A stretch of DNA of 64,000 nt from an uncultured virus (IMG/VR IMGVR_UViG_3300037088_000332) (taxonomy: Duplodnaviria > Heunggongvirae > Uroviricota > Caudoviricetes): the IMG/VR virus record IMGVR_UViG_3300037088_000332; one strand, 5' to 3'. Positions 2,787 through 56,366 of the stretch are shown one piece after another. Each line of letters starts with the position of its first letter. Position 1 is the first letter of the stretch. Made by a program: the position numbers and the translations under genes. Below the pieces are notes generated by a model, which saw nothing but the letters and a program-made list of their open reading frames with translations, did not search any database and was not told the DNA's origin.

Positions 2787-3278
2787 TTAGCGCTGCTCGA
2801 ACTTGAAGCCCAAAAGCCGACCGATGCGCTCCTCCTCCACCTTCTCCAATAGCTGGAAGAGGACAACGAGGACCTCGGAGTAGCCCATGGCGTGCTGGAG
2901 CGGCCTTCTGTCGTCCAAGGCGTTGCCGGTCGGCTCCCGTGTGTCGTCCCAGTAAAGGCTGAAGGGGCACGACGGCGTCCTTCCCGTGACCTCGTACATG
3001 CTGAGCCAGCGACCGCCGATGCAGAAGTCCTGCACGGGCAGCATTGACTCACTGGCCATCGGGAAGCGTTCCCTGTCGCTGATGTTCGGCGACCTCGACC
3101 TCGACCTGAATACAGGCTTCTCATGCCACTTTTCAGGAGTATAGGGGGGGATGCATTGGTTATGGTCGCAGTCGGAGACCAAGACCCCGCCCTCATAGGT
3201 GGCCTCGTCGCCCTTACCGTAGACCTTAGTGCTATCCCACGGGAGAATCGTCTTGGGTTTTTCCATGCTCCCTGGCAT
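2787..3278 (-). CDS. hypothetical protein with N-terminal CBM5/12-like carbohydrate-binding motif
   Basis: PWDSTKVYGKGDEATYEG...PP...KW resembles the WxxxxxYxxGDxVxYxG motif. Confidence 0.5.
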   Translation of the reverse strand: MPGSMEKPKTILPWDSTKVYGKGDEATYEGGVLVSDCDHNQCIPPYTPEKWHEKPVFRSRSRSPNISDRERFPMASESMLPVQDFCIGGRWLSMYEVTGRTPSCPFSLYWDDTREPTGNALDDRRPLQHAMGYSEVLVVLFQLLEKVEEERIGRLLGFKFEQR

Positions 3279-3487: not shown

Positions 3488-3874
3488 TTAGCCATGGTCC
3501 ACCTTTGCCCACATCTGGTCCCACCGAGCGGAGACTTCCTTCATCATCTTTTCGTTGCCTTCCCACCCGCCGCATGCCTTCGCCCGGCGATTCAGGGCGT
3601 TTGCTTTGGTTTTGAGTGCTCTGGGACCAATCAACACTTCTGTGAGGTCGTAGCGCCCGCCGTCGCCCAGCAACAGGCATCCCTTGAGTTTTTCCTGTCG
3701 AAACCAGTTCATAGCGTCCCCAAGGGCCTCCTTCTCGCTGGTGTAATTCTTGCCAGTGTTGTGGTATAGGATGTGGTACCGGTTGTTGCACTCGTCGCTT
3801 ACGGCCACCCAGTAGTGGGCCGCCTCGGGGGCAAACCCCACCCATGTGGATACCTTGGCGGAGTAGATGTTCAT
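3488..3874 (-). CDS. hypothetical protein
   Basis: 128-aa ORF in a tightly packed minus-strand run. Confidence 0.65.
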   Translation of the reverse strand: MNIYSAKVSTWVGFAPEAAHYWVAVSDECNNRYHILYHNTGKNYTSEKEALGDAMNWFRQEKLKGCLLLGDGGRYDLTEVLIGPRALKTKANALNRRAKACGGWEGNEKMMKEVSARWDQMWAKVDHG

Positions 3875-4352
3875 AGTCCGTCCGGTCCCCGTGCCACCAT
3901 GGCTCGGAAATCCTTGTTGCCGTCAAAGTAGAAGGTGGCGTGATATTCCCTCTTCCCGATGTGTATCCACGCTTCTTCCGGCTCTCTGGATTGCCGCTTG
4001 AACTCATGGTTCTCGACCTTGAGACCGTCCATAAGTTTGAGGACCTTGAGCAATGCACGGTAGTCATTGGGCTTGTTCTTCTTTGGTCTTGGCTTGGAGT
4101 TTTTTAGCATCACGCTCCTGGATTGTAGACGAAGCATCCCGTCTTGTCCGCAAGCTTCTGTTCCGCCTCCTGTAGGGTCTTGGCGGCCACGGCCGTCGGG
4201 TAGTCTTCGTTGGTGACGAGGATGTAGTCTTTCCCGTCCCGCAGGATTGAGCAGGTCCTCCTCCCGTGGTTGCTGCATCTATGCTTCATCTTCCCCTCCC
4301 TCACCGGCTCATTAACGTCTTCAACCTTAGTGTGACCATCTCGTTCCCCTTC

Positions 4353-5486
4353 CTACTCATAATCCCGTATAGCAAGACCCACGGGGAAGCGGGGTCTTTT
4401 GTCCTGCGTCCAGTTCTGGAACTGGACCGTCAGGACTTTGCCTTCCCACAGGCTGTGGTCCTCAAAGTAATCCTTGAGCTTCTTGAGGCTGCCTTTTTGC
4501 TTCGCCCGGAACTCCAAGTTGTTCTTGGTAAGGCAGACGAACTTGCCGACATGCCCTTGCAGCCTGCCCCTACCTTCTTCAATACCGATAATCTGGAATT
4601 CGTTGGTGTCGAAATGCTTAAACTTCAGGAGGTCGTAGGAGCGCTTGAAGACATATAGTCCGGCTGCGTTGCGCAGTATCAAGCCTTCGTAGCCCAATTC
4701 CACCATCTTGTCGTGCCACATAAGGACATCGTCTGCCGACTCAATGATGAACGTCTCCACCCGGACAAGCGGATTGTTTGGGAGATTGCTTTGGAGATTG
4801 TTTGGGATGTTGTCCTCCATCCATACATTCCTAGTTTCGAAGTCTCCAAGCAGGACGGCATCATAGATGTGGTACTGGACGACCTCGTGTCCGGCGACAG
4901 GGGCGTCGGGGCGGACAAGCTCGACGATGTTCTCGAAGTCGTCCCTGTAGTCGTGGTTGTACAGTTCCCCGTCCAGGGTAGTGTCCCAGTATGGGAAGGC
5001 AGCAAGAATGGCGGCCTCGATATGGGGCATGGACCTGATGCGCTTGCGGGTCCGGGTCCAGAGGGATACATCATTGCCCTTCTTGATGGCGGTGCATCTG
5101 ATGCCGTCGAGCTTTGGCTGGCCAAAGCAGGGGAAATGCATCTTGGCGGCGTGGTCCTTGTATCCGTGCGCCAGCATTGGCAGGATGCCGCCCTCTATGA
5201 CCCCATCCACCTCATCAGCCTCGGCAAGGGCGGGCGTCCTGACATACCCTTTCTTAAGCTGCTTGTTCCATTTGGCCTTTGCTTCCAGGCTTGCCTGCTC
5301 CTCGGGGGTGGTGGAATTCGCCCGCCCAACATTCTTGCCTTCCTTGATGGTGTCGGTTGTTTCCTGTGGGGAATTTGTGCCCACCTGCCCATAACGGGTG
5401 ATGATATTTGCCCCGGATGCAATAATTTCCCAGAACTGGATGGCTCCCGTGCTGGTCTTCTTGTAGAGTTTTGGAAATGCTTCCAT
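4353..5486 (-). CDS. lig: ATP-dependent DNA ligase with N-terminal WGR-like domain
   Basis: QPKLDGIRC (motif I), LDGELY, YEGLILR, LLKFK, C-terminal PRFP; SD GGTGG. Confidence 0.95.
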   Translation of the reverse strand: MEAFPKLYKKTSTGAIQFWEIIASGANIITRYGQVGTNSPQETTDTIKEGKNVGRANSTTPEEQASLEAKAKWNKQLKKGYVRTPALAEADEVDGVIEGGILPMLAHGYKDHAAKMHFPCFGQPKLDGIRCTAIKKGNDVSLWTRTRKRIRSMPHIEAAILAAFPYWDTTLDGELYNHDYRDDFENIVELVRPDAPVAGHEVVQYHIYDAVLLGDFETRNVWMEDNIPNNLQSNLPNNPLVRVETFIIESADDVLMWHDKMVELGYEGLILRNAAGLYVFKRSYDLLKFKHFDTNEFQIIGIEEGRGRLQGHVGKFVCLTKNNLEFRAKQKGSLKKLKDYFEDHSLWEGKVLTVQFQNWTQDKRPRFPVGLAIRDYE

Positions 5487-21097: not shown

Positions 21098-21230
21098 CAC
21101 TTATATAATACATCGGAAAACTGGGAAATTTGAACTTATTTTGAAGCGGTGAGTCCGAGTAGCCTTGTTGGCACCGCTCCGCTCCGCAAGGCTCAAAAGA
21201 TGGGAAGCGGTAAAAACCATCTACCCCGGA

Positions 21231-26882: not shown

Positions 26883-26960
26883 TGGGCGCAAGGGACGGAT
26901 TTAAACCGTCGTCCATCCGGCACCACTGCCGGTGCTCTCTCTACCTGAGCTACCCTACAC
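26883..26960 (-). ncRNA. tRNA-His-like RNA with 4-nt anticodon loop
   Basis: G-1:C73 and CCA; CCGGCA-GTGG-TGCCGG. Confidence 0.65.
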
Positions 26961-42564: not shown

Positions 42565-43854
42565 TCATAGCACCTTCTCAAGGACGTAGTCTTCGGCGTT
42601 GCCGATTTCCGTCCACGGGATGTGACACTCGTCGAGAATCCTCTTCGTGGCTATTAACGACTCCGCCCAGCGCCCCAGCTTGTCGGCGTCCGGGCATGGG
42701 AACACGAACCGTTTGATGCCTGCCTGCATCATCTGCACGGCGCACCGTATGCAGGAGCAAAACGGCCACGTATAGAGGACACAGCCTTTCACCGGCCCGT
42801 TGGCGAAGAGCAGGGCGTTTATCTCGCAGTTATGCATTGGGAAACCTTCTACAATCATCGTGCGGGTGGAGGTTTGTACTTTAGCAATCTCTTGGGTACC
42901 GGCTGGTTCTACCGCCATGACACAACGTATGCAGTGTCGAGAAGAGTGCATTCTTCCAAACTTGTCAGGATTAAGCTTATTCAGTAGTCGTTTTGGTCTG
43001 ACAGTACCTAGAAAAGATAGACGTTCAGACAACCTGCCACGTATATGGGCAGCGAGACAGTCCTTTTTTCCTAATCCCCCTTGCATTGGGAATGAGTGTG
43101 TCCAAATGTGAAAATCTTGTGCTCGGTTTTTTAAGAGTCTCAGGACCTCCTCCAGAACCAATCCCGGTCTTTGTGCAAATTGTAAGGTGTGTCCGTGTTT
43201 AGAAATTGAGCCTTCCCCATCTAGCAAACCCGCTAAGTACCCAGCATCATAATCCGTAGCGGTAACCCAAGGTGTAAACAATTTATAAATTTTAGATGAG
43301 TGGTGGGCGAGGCCATCTTTTGTCAACCTAGCATTCTTGGGGGGTATGAGCAATTCGTCAGTTCTCCTCCACCGCCTCACATTGTTTGACCTAACCCCCA
43401 GTAACCAGCGGTGTTCTGCTGTACAGAGAATTTCGCTATTGTCATTAAAAATGACCCTAAAGACAGGCTCTTTGGCAAAGCTTATGTGTTCAACAATAGA
43501 CCTTCGGTATTTTCTACCACTTCGAGTTAGAGGGAATTCGTCAAACCCAACGAGGGCGTCCCCCACCTTGACTCCCCCCAATTCCACCCAACGTAAATCT
43601 GCGGTCAATGTTTTGTGAGATGGAACAGTGCAATGAACGATGTGGTCATACTTATAGGTCCGGTCGGTGTAAAGCTCGGGGTCATCTTTGGCCCCCTGCG
43701 GGAAGCCGTTGAATCCCACGCCCACCACCGACTTGTTCGGGCGCACGATGACCGCTCCCGTTTTAGTACTTGAATCTTTTGACCATGATGCTATGTGCGC
43801 CGAAAGTTCTAAGAAACGCCTATCCCACTTGTCGCTAATCTTGATTTTTTCCAT
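42565..43854 (-). CDS. dCMP deaminase containing an intein
   Basis: WSKDSSTKTGAVIV, GFNGFP, H|CE.NA, PFCSCIRC. Confidence 0.92.
   Translation of the reverse strand: MEKIKISDKWDRRFLELSAHIASWSKDSSTKTGAVIVRPNKSVVGVGFNGFPQGAKDDPELYTDRTYKYDHIVHCTVPSHKTLTADLRWVELGGVKVGDALVGFDEFPLTRSGRKYRRSIVEHISFAKEPVFRVIFNDNSEILCTAEHRWLLGVRSNNVRRWRRTDELLIPPKNARLTKDGLAHHSSKIYKLFTPWVTATDYDAGYLAGLLDGEGSISKHGHTLQFAQRPGLVLEEVLRLLKNRAQDFHIWTHSFPMQGGLGKKDCLAAHIRGRLSERLSFLGTVRPKRLLNKLNPDKFGRMHSSRHCIRCVMAVEPAGTQEIAKVQTSTRTMIVEGFPMHNCEINALLFANGPVKGCVLYTWPFCSCIRCAVQMMQAGIKRFVFPCPDADKLGRWAESLIATKRILDECHIPWTEIGNAEDYVLEKVL
42829..43632 (-). mobile_element. intein with LAGLIDADG endonuclease (268 aa)
   Basis: Starts CTVPSHKTLTADL, block B TAEHRW, YLAGLLDGEG, ends MHN before Cys. 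Confidence 0.9.
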
Positions 43855-52327: not shown

Positions 52328-52406
52328 TGGTGGCACCGGAGGGAGTCGAACCCCCAATTTCTCGGTTTACAACCGAGTGTTCTGCCTGTTGAACTACAAC
52401 GGTCCC
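52328..52406 (-). tRNA. tRNA-Tyr(GTA), atypical short-variable-arm form
   Basis: CTCGG-TTGTAAA-CCGAG; 5-nt acceptor-D linker; CCA. Confidence 0.75.
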
Positions 52407-52420
52407 ACAAACTTAAAACT

Positions 52421-52514
52421 TGGTGGGTGTGGGAGGATTCGAACCCCCAACGTCTGGACAAGCCAAATTCCGGGTTACAGCCGGATGCAGCCAAGCCGTA
52501 TCTGCTTCACACCC
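52421..52514 (-). tRNA. tRNA-Tyr(GTA)
   Basis: CCGG-CTGTAAC-CCGG; long variable arm; CCA. Confidence 0.88.
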
Positions 52515-52693
52515 CAAACTTTTAGCCTCCCAGCCGGTCGGTTCATCACCATAGCAACAGGGGGATTATCCGAGATTAACTCGCCCGCTATTACCAGCCC
52601 TGATATTCGGGGCATCGGGTCTCGCAGCCGAAGCTACGGTGTTTTTCCACCCACTCAAGGGGGTCCACACGGATTGCTAAAACCTACTCCTAC

Positions 52694-52721
52694 AAACAAA
52701 AATGGCGGCTTTTCAGCCGCC
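52694..52721 (-). terminator. attenuator-type intrinsic terminator before tRNA array 2
   Basis: GGCGGC-TGAAAA-GCCGCC-ATTTTTGTTT. Confidence 0.85.
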
Positions 52722-52748
52722 CTCGTCTTGCCCGATTTTTGGGAGGTT

Positions 52749-52838
52749 TTACCCGTCCCATCCCTCGGACAACACGAGGACGCTAAGCAGCGATGAGCTA
52801 CTATAGGATGACAACGAGTTGTTCGATAAGCGATTCAT
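52749..52838 (-). CDS. putative leader peptide of array 2 (MNRLSNNSLSSYSSSSLLSVLVLSEGWDG)
   Basis: SD AAGGAAG; 17 of codons 4-24 are Ser/Leu/Tyr; contains the antiterminator strand 52765-52782; in frame with an upstream ATG at 52943. Confidence 0.82.
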   Translation of the reverse strand: MNRLSNNSLSSYSSSSLLSVLVLSEGWDG

Positions 52839-52956
52839 ATCTTCCTTTGCAAGCCGCGGCCGGGGGGATGGAAAATGGACCCCCCGGCCGGTACTGCGAC
52901 TGCAACTGCAACTACGGACGGAACGTCTCACTTCAAACCACATACTACCTTACATT

Positions 52957-52990
52957 CATATAATACTTCCGATAGTCACAATTTTCAGGA
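52957..52990 (-). promoter_or_regulatory. sigma70-like promoter of the array-2 leader
   Basis: CTGAAA-17 nt-TATTAT. Confidence 0.7.
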
Positions 52991-53021
52991 AAATTTTTTA
53001 TGGCCAGCCTCTATACGTGTC

Positions 53022-54464: not shown

Positions 54465-56366
54465 ATGAACATAAGGGTTTCGCCTAAGACAGGAAGAAAG
54501 TACGGTTTCCAGCACTGGAAGGCAGAGGGGACCCACGGACCTTATCAGAACACCTATACTATGATGACGGTTGACCAGCCTCCACTAGAGGTCAGCCAAC
54601 TACAGTGGATGCCGCCTGTTTACGACCAAGGACAGGAAGGCTCTTGCACCGCTTTCGGGGCAAAGAACGTCAGGGAATTCCTTAGCATCAAGTATGTAAA
54701 AAAGCCGGTTTCGCTCAGCGCCCAGTTTCAGTACTATTGCGAGCGCCTGCTTAACGGAAACGTAGGCCAAGATGCCGGGTCCACAGTATCGACAGCAATG
54801 CTGTCAATGCGGATGTTCGGCATCTGCCCCGACGCTGATGAGTCGTACACAACCCCCTTTGTGACCAAGCCGTCTCAGAAGGATTTCGTGGATGCCGCCC
54901 GCTATAAGATTGGGAACATTTATACTATCAACACCTTGACGGACATGAAGAACGTCCTTAACGCCGGATGGGTCTTTGAACTTGGATTCCTCGTCTATGA
55001 ATCTTTTGAGTCCGATTCCGTGGCCACAACTGGCATCATGACCATGCCATCTTCCAAGGAGCAACTTCTCGGAGGTCATGCGGTCTGCCTTACCGCAGAT
55101 ACCAAGATATCCTTGCTGGACGGAACGGAGAGATCCATCCTAGACCTATGCAAGGGGTTTGAGGATAGGTCGTTCTGGGTATATAGCTGTGACGAAAACG
55201 GGGGTGTGGTTCCAGGGCTGGCACATCATCCACGAAAGACTGGAGAAAAAAAGCCGATAGTGAAGGTTACCCTGGATAATGGGGAGACAATCCGCTGCAC
55301 CCCGGATGAGTGGTTCATGCTGCGCGATGGGTCGTATCGGGAGGCATTCAACCTAGTAGCGGGAGACAGTCTGATGCCATTGTACCGCAAGATAGACGAG
55401 AAGCAGTTGCCTGGCTATGAGATGGTGTATAACCTTGCCACGAAGCGGTGGAGGCATACTCATCGTGCTTCTTACAGCGGAACTTACGGGAAATATGACA
55501 GAGGCGTTATACACCACGACGATTTCAATAAGCGCAACAATGTTCCCGATAACCTGATTCATATGACATGGGAACAGCATACTGCTTTGCACAGTCAAAA
55601 CATTGCCTTATTAGAAGATTATGCAAAAAGTGATGAGGGCAGAGAGCATAGCCGTCAACTTATGACCAAACTCTGGGGTGACCCAGATTGGCGGGAAGAG
55701 TCTATGCTACGGATTAAAGAGAACGGTAAGAAGGTATCCTATCAGTTGGCGCTAGAGGGACGTTGCGGATTTCAAGCTATGGATAAGGATGTGATAGCTG
55801 CAATCGGGCACATAACTGGTCCAAAGAATATCCTAAAGACTCAAACCCCTGAGGCGCGGACAAAGCAAATAGCTACCCTAAAATTTCGCTATGCAACCGA
55901 CTCCGAATTTTCCAAGGTTGTACTGGAAAAAGCATTGAGGGCATCACAGGTTGCGGCTCTTCTTGCCCCGACGCAGGCGCAGATAGAGGCTCGTCAAGAG
56001 AATGTGAAAGTCGCCAGGGCTACCAAGGCTAAAAAGTTCGCTATGGCTGCCGTAAACAACCATAAGGTTGTCTCTGTGGAGGATGCTGGATATGAGGATG
56101 TCTATGATTTAACCGTAGATAGATACCACAACTTTGCTCTTACTTCTGGGATATTTGTCCACAATTGTGTCTGGGGGTACAACGACACCTTTATGTTCCC
56201 CGGTCTCCCGAACGGTGCGCTGGCCATCCGCAATAGTTGGGGTACTTGGGGCAACAACGGTAACTTCTTCATGCCCTACGGTTATCTGAACGGAATTGAC
56301 CCTAGTGGCAATGGACCGTTTGTGAGCGATGCCCATTTGTGCCATTTGGGACCGGTTTGGTCGTGA
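54465..56366 (+). CDS. papain-like (C1A) cysteine peptidase containing an intein
   Basis: DQGQEGSCTAF, LSAQFQYY, GGHAV|CVWGY, IRNSWG.WG.NG.F; SD GAGGAGG. Confidence 0.92.
   Translation: MNIRVSPKTGRKYGFQHWKAEGTHGPYQNTYTMMTVDQPPLEVSQLQWMPPVYDQGQEGSCTAFGAKNVREFLSIKYVKKPVSLSAQFQYYCERLLNGNVGQDAGSTVSTAMLSMRMFGICPDADESYTTPFVTKPSQKDFVDAARYKIGNIYTINTLTDMKNVLNAGWVFELGFLVYESFESDSVATTGIMTMPSSKEQLLGGHAVCLTADTKISLLDGTERSILDLCKGFEDRSFWVYSCDENGGVVPGLAHHPRKTGEKKPIVKVTLDNGETIRCTPDEWFMLRDGSYREAFNLVAGDSLMPLYRKIDEKQLPGYEMVYNLATKRWRHTHRASYSGTYGKYDRGVIHHDDFNKRNNVPDNLIHMTWEQHTALHSQNIALLEDYAKSDEGREHSRQLMTKLWGDPDWREESMLRIKENGKKVSYQLALEGRCGFQAMDKDVIAAIGHITGPKNILKTQTPEARTKQIATLKFRYATDSEFSKVVLEKALRASQVAALLAPTQAQIEARQENVKVARATKAKKFAMAAVNNHKVVSVEDAGYEDVYDLTVDRYHNFALTSGIFVHNCVWGYNDTFMFPGLPNGALAIRNSWGTWGNNGNFFMPYGYLNGIDPSGNGPFVSDAHLCHLGPVWS
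55086..56165 (+). mobile_element. intein with HNH endonuclease (360 aa)
   Basis: CLTADTKISLLDG, CTPDEWFM, HHDDFNKRNNVPDNL, VYDLTV..HNFAL..GIFVHN before Cys. Confidence 0.92.

Follow-up and report, generated by a model that had tools for sequence, protein, structure and literature searches.

The 64,000-nt stretch of DNA analysed here (the window) is phage DNA, encoding RIIA- and RIIB-like proteins, a DNA ligase, a head-like protein and HNH endonucleases, and it carries 31 tRNA genes in two arrays, both on the minus strand. The second array, with tRNA genes for tyrosine, leucine and serine, is preceded by a promoter motif, a short open reading frame (ORF) and an intrinsic terminator, in that order, and the features of the locus are as follows:

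52989-52956, minus strand: promoter motif common to the tRNA arrays (-35-like element 52988-52983, -10 element 52965-52960)
52955-52851, minus strand: conserved 5' leader (about 100 nt) containing a G/C-rich hairpin
52838-52749, minus strand: leader ORF of 29 codons plus TAA (ATG 52838-52836, TAA 52751-52749)
52829-52782, minus strand: putative sensor block, codons 4-19 of the leader ORF, with 14/16 codons for Ser, Leu or Tyr
52782-52765, minus strand: 5' arm of the predicted antiterminator, inside the last codons of the ORF
52764-52736, minus strand: apical part of the long hairpin, containing the stop codon
52735-52718, minus strand: 3' arm of the predicted antiterminator, of which bases 52721-52718 are also the first four of the 5' arm of the terminator
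52721-52694, minus strand: intrinsic terminator (hairpin 52721-52704, T-rich tail 52703-52694)
52693-52515, minus strand: spacer (about 180 nt) separating the terminator from the first tRNA-Tyr gene
52514-50754, minus strand: tRNA array 2, with Tyr (gta, two copies), Leu (aag, tag, cag), an HNH-endonuclease ORF, Leu (taa, caa) and Ser (gct, tga, gga)
51916-51233, minus strand: the HNH-endonuclease ORF within this array
50600-50517, minus strand: possible further class-II tRNA, sub-threshold, with an anticodon loop reading CGA (Ser)

The genes downstream of the leader are thus 10 tRNA genes and one HNH-endonuclease ORF, with no biosynthesis or synthetase genes among them, which places the locus outside the scope of the classical attenuators. 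An earlier note on this DNA had counted two Tyr, five Leu and four Ser tRNAs in the array; the Tyr and Leu counts stand, and both ARAGORN and Rfam find three Ser tRNAs rather than four. The sub-threshold sequence at the end of the array, which scores 36.5 bits with the tRNA-Sec model (gathering score 47) and is not called by ARAGORN, may be the fourth Ser tRNA. A 55-codon ORF (50741-50574, minus strand) follows the last of the called Ser tRNAs and runs into the beginning of this tRNA-like sequence. The spacer ahead of the first tRNA-Tyr gene matches no Rfam family and its fold is not unusual (z-score +0.28), and such a long spacer is lacking in the related phage version G004 (see below), where the tRNA-Tyr gene begins about 11 nt after the start of the T-run.

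Some further features of the window were recorded in passing. The first tRNA array contains a match to the Rfam CyVA-1 RNA (21154-21230, minus strand; 49.7 bits, gathering score 41.4), and tRNA-like genes to which ARAGORN assigns a two-base 'anticodon' are present in several arrays (window 26883-26959, minus strand; L065 1365-1435; L067 3780-3853). A papain-family (C1) peptidase ORF (54465-56366, plus strand) also has Pfam matches to an intein splicing domain and an HNH domain, and a dCMP-deaminase-like ORF (42565-43854, minus strand) also has a LAGLIDADG domain match, so that both show Pfam matches of the intein type.

The promoter originally proposed for the Tyr/Leu/Ser leader (CTGAAA-17-TATTAT) is present at 52988-52960 on the minus strand. 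As a scan of the window with this pattern gave five sites against 4.9 in shuffled sequences, the scan alone is no evidence of a promoter. The 34-nt motif around the site has exactly two matches in the window where none are expected (0 expected matches), one ahead of each tRNA array; the same motif also heads tRNA arrays in related phage contigs, and in G004 it additionally precedes the RNase P RNA gene. A third promoter-like site in the window (33569-33550, two mismatches) was put down to chance, since it lies inside coding sequence. The 5' leader downstream of the motif has a mean column identity of 82% with the versions of this leader in the related phages (G004 and G006), and its hairpin consists of 11-nt arms (52890-52880 and 52867-52857) with 100% complementarity.

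Apart from the leader ORF, no ORF of 20 or more codons ends 25-95 nt before the T-run, and the Shine-Dalgarno sequence AAGGAAG reported for the leader ORF is found at 52847-52841 (minus strand), 4 nt ahead of the ATG, while purine-rich sites occupy the same position in the 14 other leaders described below (the upstream 20 nt were inspected in each). A recount bore out the reported composition of codons 4-24, with 10 Ser, 6 Leu and 1 Tyr codon, and over the whole ORF 11 different codons for these three amino acids are used. Ser, Leu and Tyr together make up 17/28 codons after the Met (binomial P = 5e-5, computed with the larger of two backgrounds), and the enrichment is stronger still when the last nine codons are left out, as these form RNA structure (14/19 codons, P = 9e-6). 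Among the other small ORFs of the window, 1/331 also reaches a Ser/Leu/Tyr fraction of 0.6, and as Ser and Leu are both six-codon amino acids, such a composition is rare but not unique, and it is the position of the ORF and its conservation that carry the argument. All nine anticodons of the array have a cognate codon in the leader (9/9). When synonymous codons were redrawn with the peptide held constant, such full coverage of the anticodons was not significant, with P = 0.41 for the window and 0.13-0.74 for the other leaders.

The terminator consists of a hairpin with seven pairs and a 4-nt loop (-16.4 kcal/mol, within the 42 nt before the T-run), although a scan of the window with the terminator pattern gave no more sites than in shuffled sequences. 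Upstream of it, the two arms of the predicted antiterminator pair at 17/18 positions as had been claimed (15 Watson-Crick pairs, two G:U pairs and one mismatch, counted by hand), and a search for the helix gave wider arms at 52718-52744 and 52756-52782. When folded, a 271-nt region was more stable than all of its shuffles (z = -4.64, 0/200 as stable), and the helix is part of the minimum free energy (MFE) structure. The claim that the helix overlaps the 5' arm of the terminator holds for four of the seven bases of that arm, and in the window copy the two structures are only partially exclusive of each other (terminator probability 0.58) and can coexist in the MFE structure.

The effect of a ribosome on these alternative structures was modelled by computing how the equilibrium probability of the terminator stem varies with the 5' limit of the ribosome-free RNA, with the ORF tail taken as covered when its last 27 nt or so were masked. 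The resulting terminator probabilities were:

Window leader: ORF tail free with sensor block masked, 0.58; whole leader free, 0.82-0.86; ORF tail covered, 0.99
G004 leader: ORF tail free with sensor block masked, 0.00; whole leader free, 0.22-0.28; ORF tail covered, 0.99
G006 leader: ORF tail free with sensor block masked, 0.01; whole leader free, 0.57-0.61; ORF tail covered, 0.98

Values as low as those with the tail free were reached by 1/100 dinucleotide shuffles of the coding part for the window, and by 0/100 for both G004 and G006. In these equilibrium calculations the three-state pattern agrees with that predicted for a classical attenuator, and the modelling supports a switch governed by ribosome position in all three Tyr/Leu/Ser leaders, with the window copy being the weakest. 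The pairing of the 5' arm of the terminator before its 3' arm has been made did not separate the real leaders from shuffles (19/100 shuffles reach the value of the window leader).

Relatives of the locus were found by scanning public viral and metagenome contigs for the promoter motif. In a relaxed scan of the viral contigs, 15 of the 35 loci had a tRNA array on the same strand, two were cut by contig ends, and the 18 loci without tRNA genes were taken as chance matches; of the eight metagenome loci, three had no tRNA genes (L016, L018 and L019). The two viral loci cut in this way, L032 and L033, have a promoter and leader of the type found at L028, and their contigs end before any tRNA gene. 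The tRNA arrays behind the motif belong to uncultured jumbo phages. Other routes to relatives gave little: searches for close relatives of the window among deposited phage genomes gave matches at the level of tRNAs only, the neighbouring head-like protein led to no relatives, and comparison of the window array DNA with G001-G003 gave a single match of tRNA size. Matches to the leader pattern in bacterial and archaeal genomes were rejected, as 22/22 were without tRNA genes, and by eye they look like a shared coding motif.

Orthologues of the Tyr/Leu/Ser leader were present on four contigs, in two distinct versions (G004 and G006) with two contigs each. These two versions differ at 91 of 220 ungapped positions around the leader, a number inflated by indels, and are therefore not assembly copies of one sequence. 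Loss of the helix and of the Ser/Leu enrichment in relatives with the same array had been named beforehand as a possible refutation, and the helix and the Ser/Leu/Tyr enrichment are kept in both versions (2/2), as are the ORF, the terminator and the position of the stop codon in the apical part of the helix. The indels between the ORF of the window and its orthologues (6/9 nt and 3 nt) are all multiples of three, with 1-nt indels found only after the stop codon, and the differences from the window in the sensor block are all either synonymous, exchanges within the Ser/Leu/Tyr set, a change from Asn to Ser (gaining a member of the set), or indels of codons of the set. In G006, a 1.4-kb insertion with several ORFs (L040, about 3640-5060, plus strand) separates the conserved 5' hairpin from the leader ORF, and despite this insertion between promoter and leader, the ORF and the terminator are intact beside the tRNA-Tyr gene. 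Covariation in the helix, which had been put forward as a check, was weak in the three sequences: the helix itself is kept, with one-sided changes at two pairs only, and its core shows no double-sided change. We take the Tyr/Leu/Ser leader to be a real, conserved regulatory element.

The same layout is found at tRNA arrays of other types. The G004 contig (316,945 bp, 99% complete) has 62 tRNA matches and four arrays, each with its own leader, and these arrays jointly cover all 20 amino acids:

Array type 1 of G004: Tyr/Leu/Ser
Array type 2 of G004: Ile/Thr/Gln
Array type 3 of G004: Val/Gly/Ala/Asp/Glu/Cys, followed by a tmRNA gene
Array type 4 of G004: His/Arg/Asn/Lys/Phe/Met/Pro/Gln/Trp

The tRNA genes of G004 are thereby sorted into Tyr, Leu and Ser, which are the tRNA families with long variable arms; all amino acids with GNN codons together with Cys; Ile, Thr and Gln(ttg); and the rest. 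Array 1 of the window is of the fourth of these types, and its leader has the following features:

27654-27621, minus strand: promoter motif
27381-27277, minus strand: leader ORF of array 1
27250-27222, minus strand: terminator hairpin

This ORF, which is conserved in G004, has 23/33 codons after the Met for the nine amino acids of array 1, and the proposal that the two arrays of the window have leaders with the same logic and unrelated sequence is supported, with the promoter motif being common to both.

We extended this comparison to 15 pairs of leader and array, comprising three of the Tyr/Leu/Ser type, five of the Ile/Thr/Gln type, four of the Val/Gly/Ala type (plus one with a partial array) and two of the His/Arg type. 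Each of the 15 leaders has one, and only one, ORF of 20 codons or more whose end lies 25-95 nt ahead of an intrinsic terminator, and all 15 are enriched only for the amino-acid set of their own array: for the codons before the last nine, P values for the own set range from 1e-7 to 2e-2, whereas the smallest P value for a foreign set is 0.08. As the orthologues are related to each other, the independent evidence amounts to four array types rather than 15 leaders. In 14/15 pairs the leader contains one or more cognate codons for each anticodon found in the array, as it does for all 15/15 anticodons of window array 1, and a single leader would poll up to nine amino acids, and 15 (window) or 16 (G004) anticodons. 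The computed folding was less uniform, and for the Val/Gly/Ala-type leaders, most Ile/Thr/Gln leaders and window array 1 an equilibrium switch could not be distinguished from that in shuffles; by eye, the ORF tails of these same leaders hold copies of the 3' arm of their terminator.

Several observations were made alongside in these other arrays. In all Ile/Thr/Gln arrays (L001 551-943, L006, L008, L025 and L028), the leader terminator and the first tRNA gene are separated by a conserved ORF of about 120-130 aa, which given its position downstream of the terminator would be co-regulated with the array. In G003 (L008, about 2830-2880, minus strand), AT-rich DNA and an ORF come after a sequence resembling the 5' part of a tRNA-Ile, with no tRNA-Ile called by ARAGORN in this array, and it is possible that the tRNA-Ile gene carries a mobile insertion. 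In G004 there are genes for a bacterial class-A RNase P RNA (191 bits; L064 11983-12291, minus strand) and a tmRNA (124 bits; L064 14449-14802, minus strand). A copy of the promoter motif, followed by two small ORFs, lies about 490 nt upstream of the RNase P RNA. A tmRNA following a Val/Gly/Ala-type array was also seen in the metagenome loci L012-L017.

Public RNA data were also searched for transcripts of the window locus. Short pieces from peat and other RNA runs fell mostly on the tRNA genes and were mostly 90-95% alike, with one 33-nt piece in the spacer, and in these runs (two peat metatranscriptomes with 4% of sampled words, and two others) no piece covered the leader ORF or the hairpin of the terminator, which is uninformative either way.

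Taken with the codon match and the computed folding, the arrangement of these parts makes it likely that the leader is a ribosome-mediated (leader-peptide) transcription attenuator, which gates the Tyr/Leu/Ser tRNA array and couples its transcription to the speed of decoding. As a codon-matched ORF is joined here to a transcription terminator, the phage probably makes its Tyr, Leu and Ser tRNAs when ribosomes read the corresponding codons slowly. Transcription would begin at a promoter of the type found before stable-RNA genes in these phages, and a ribosome would translate the 29-codon leader while RNA polymerase nears the terminator. With charged Ser, Leu and Tyr tRNAs in plentiful supply, the ribosome would reach the stop codon and cover the last codons of the ORF, which constitute the 5' arm of the helix; the 3' arm would then be free, the terminator hairpin would form, and transcription would stop before the tRNA genes. 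Should any of these tRNAs be scarce, the ribosome is predicted to stall in codons 4 to about 14, leaving the 5' arm free to pair with the 3' arm. This antiterminator pairing would take up part of the 5' arm of the terminator (all of it in the orthologues), stalling would in this way alter termination, and the polymerase would enter the Tyr/Leu/Ser tRNA genes. The predicted direction of the response is therefore a demand-driven supply of exactly the set of tRNAs whose codons the leader contains.

The evidence was weighed against other explanations of the same features. The nearest of these accepts the conserved ORF and terminator and supposes a different form of control, such as protection from Rho by the translating ribosome, processing of the precursor coupled to translation, or a reversed polarity with efficient translation leading to read-through, and in none of these forms would the long helix be an antiterminator. 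The coexistence of helix and terminator in the MFE structure of the window copy, where the terminator has a probability of at least 0.58 in all states, speaks for this explanation, as does the failure to detect a folding switch in several leaders of the other array types. Against this, the helix drives the terminator of G004 and G006 down to 0.00-0.01, compared with 0.94-0.95 in shuffles, and covering the ORF tail restores it to 0.98-0.99, as expected for a classical antiterminator; in addition, each of the three Tyr/Leu/Ser leaders has its stop codon in the apical part of the helix. On balance we regard control of this other kind as improbable, though it is the most serious of the competing explanations.

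It is much less probable that the long helix is an RNase III-type processing site at which the leader is cut from the tRNA precursor, with the ORF encoding a Ser/Leu-rich micropeptide of a composition unrelated to the array. The imperfect duplex of about 25 bp adjoining stable-RNA genes would suit such a site, and duplexes of this kind flank rRNA and some phage RNA precursors. A processing site leaves unexplained the match of each of four unrelated leaders to the amino acids of its own array alone (15/15), the fact that changes in the sensor block keep to membership of the set and not to sequence, and the presence of an intrinsic terminator after each of the ORFs. Chance, in the form of a functionless small ORF near a terminator that is rich in Ser and Leu because these have six codons each, might draw on the one other small ORF of the window with an equal Ser/Leu/Tyr fraction and on the promoter and terminator scans that did no better than shuffles. 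We consider this extremely unlikely, as the ORF is conserved with frame-keeping indels, the promoter motif had no matches expected by chance, and the same design recurs at three other array types, whose amino-acid sets differ. Leader-peptide attenuation of the Tyr/Leu/Ser array remains the preferred explanation.

More tentatively, the four arrays may together form a genome-wide regulon for tRNA supply, in which about 60 tRNA genes, in four arrays covering 20 amino acids, share the same type of stable-RNA promoter and each array has its own multivalent leader polling every isoacceptor. Such leaders could sense the depletion or cleavage of host tRNAs during infection and switch on the replacement set as an inducible counter-defence. 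Cleavage of tRNA-Tyr by defence nucleases, at its variable loop among other sites, has been reported. We consider the full form of this proposal speculative and rather doubtful.

The purpose of phage tRNA genes is an old question, currently answered by codon compensation and by escape from defences that cleave tRNA, the latter role being discussed in PMC10264068 and PMC11555353. If the attenuator reading is correct, the phage gauges the speed of decoding for defined sets of tRNAs and responds by transcribing just those genes, and both the codon-compensation and the defence-escape hypotheses become testable with a simple reporter. It would also mean that leader-peptide attenuation reaches stable-RNA genes and highly multivalent sensing, and regulated tRNA operons would become recognisable to annotators.

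We found no published account of control of tRNA genes, arrays or operons by leader peptides or attenuation, in a search that had subscription journals outside its scope, and the text of PMC10264068 nowhere uses a word beginning with attenuat-, nor leader, terminator or promoter. Leader-peptide attenuation has long been known for amino-acid genes, and its use for tRNA genes, of which we found no account, is probably undescribed. The Rfam leader families and the T-box gave no match to the locus: in the region 52380-53000 only tRNAs were found up to E = 1, and a scan of the whole window at gathering thresholds gave tRNAs and CyVA-1 only.

Leader-peptide attenuators are found at the enterobacterial trp, his, leu, thr, ilvGMEDA and pheA operons, and at pheST. 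As with those of the amino-acid operons, the phage leader has a promoter-proximal short ORF rich in the regulatory codons, the tail of this ORF would provide an arm of the predicted antiterminator, an intrinsic terminator precedes the regulated genes, and the RNA fold would be chosen by the position of the ribosome, which for the phage is seen in computed folding only. Similar to ilvGMEDA and thr, the phage leader is also multivalent, with several amino acids represented in a single leader. It differs from the amino-acid operons in preceding tRNA genes rather than biosynthetic or synthetase genes, so that the charged tRNA that would be sensed is made from the regulated genes themselves; furthermore, the phage leaders hold codons for up to nine amino acids, addressing every anticodon of the array, and each is one of four leaders which jointly cover 20 amino acids. 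The phage leader is related to these attenuators neither in sequence nor by Rfam family. The T-box riboswitches resemble the phage leaders in that the supply or charging of tRNA is sensed, with a choice between terminator and antiterminator upstream of translation-related genes. However, in T-boxes a single uncharged tRNA is bound directly, through a specifier codon and the conserved T-box sequence and without a ribosome, whereas the phage leader has a translatable ORF with many different codons.
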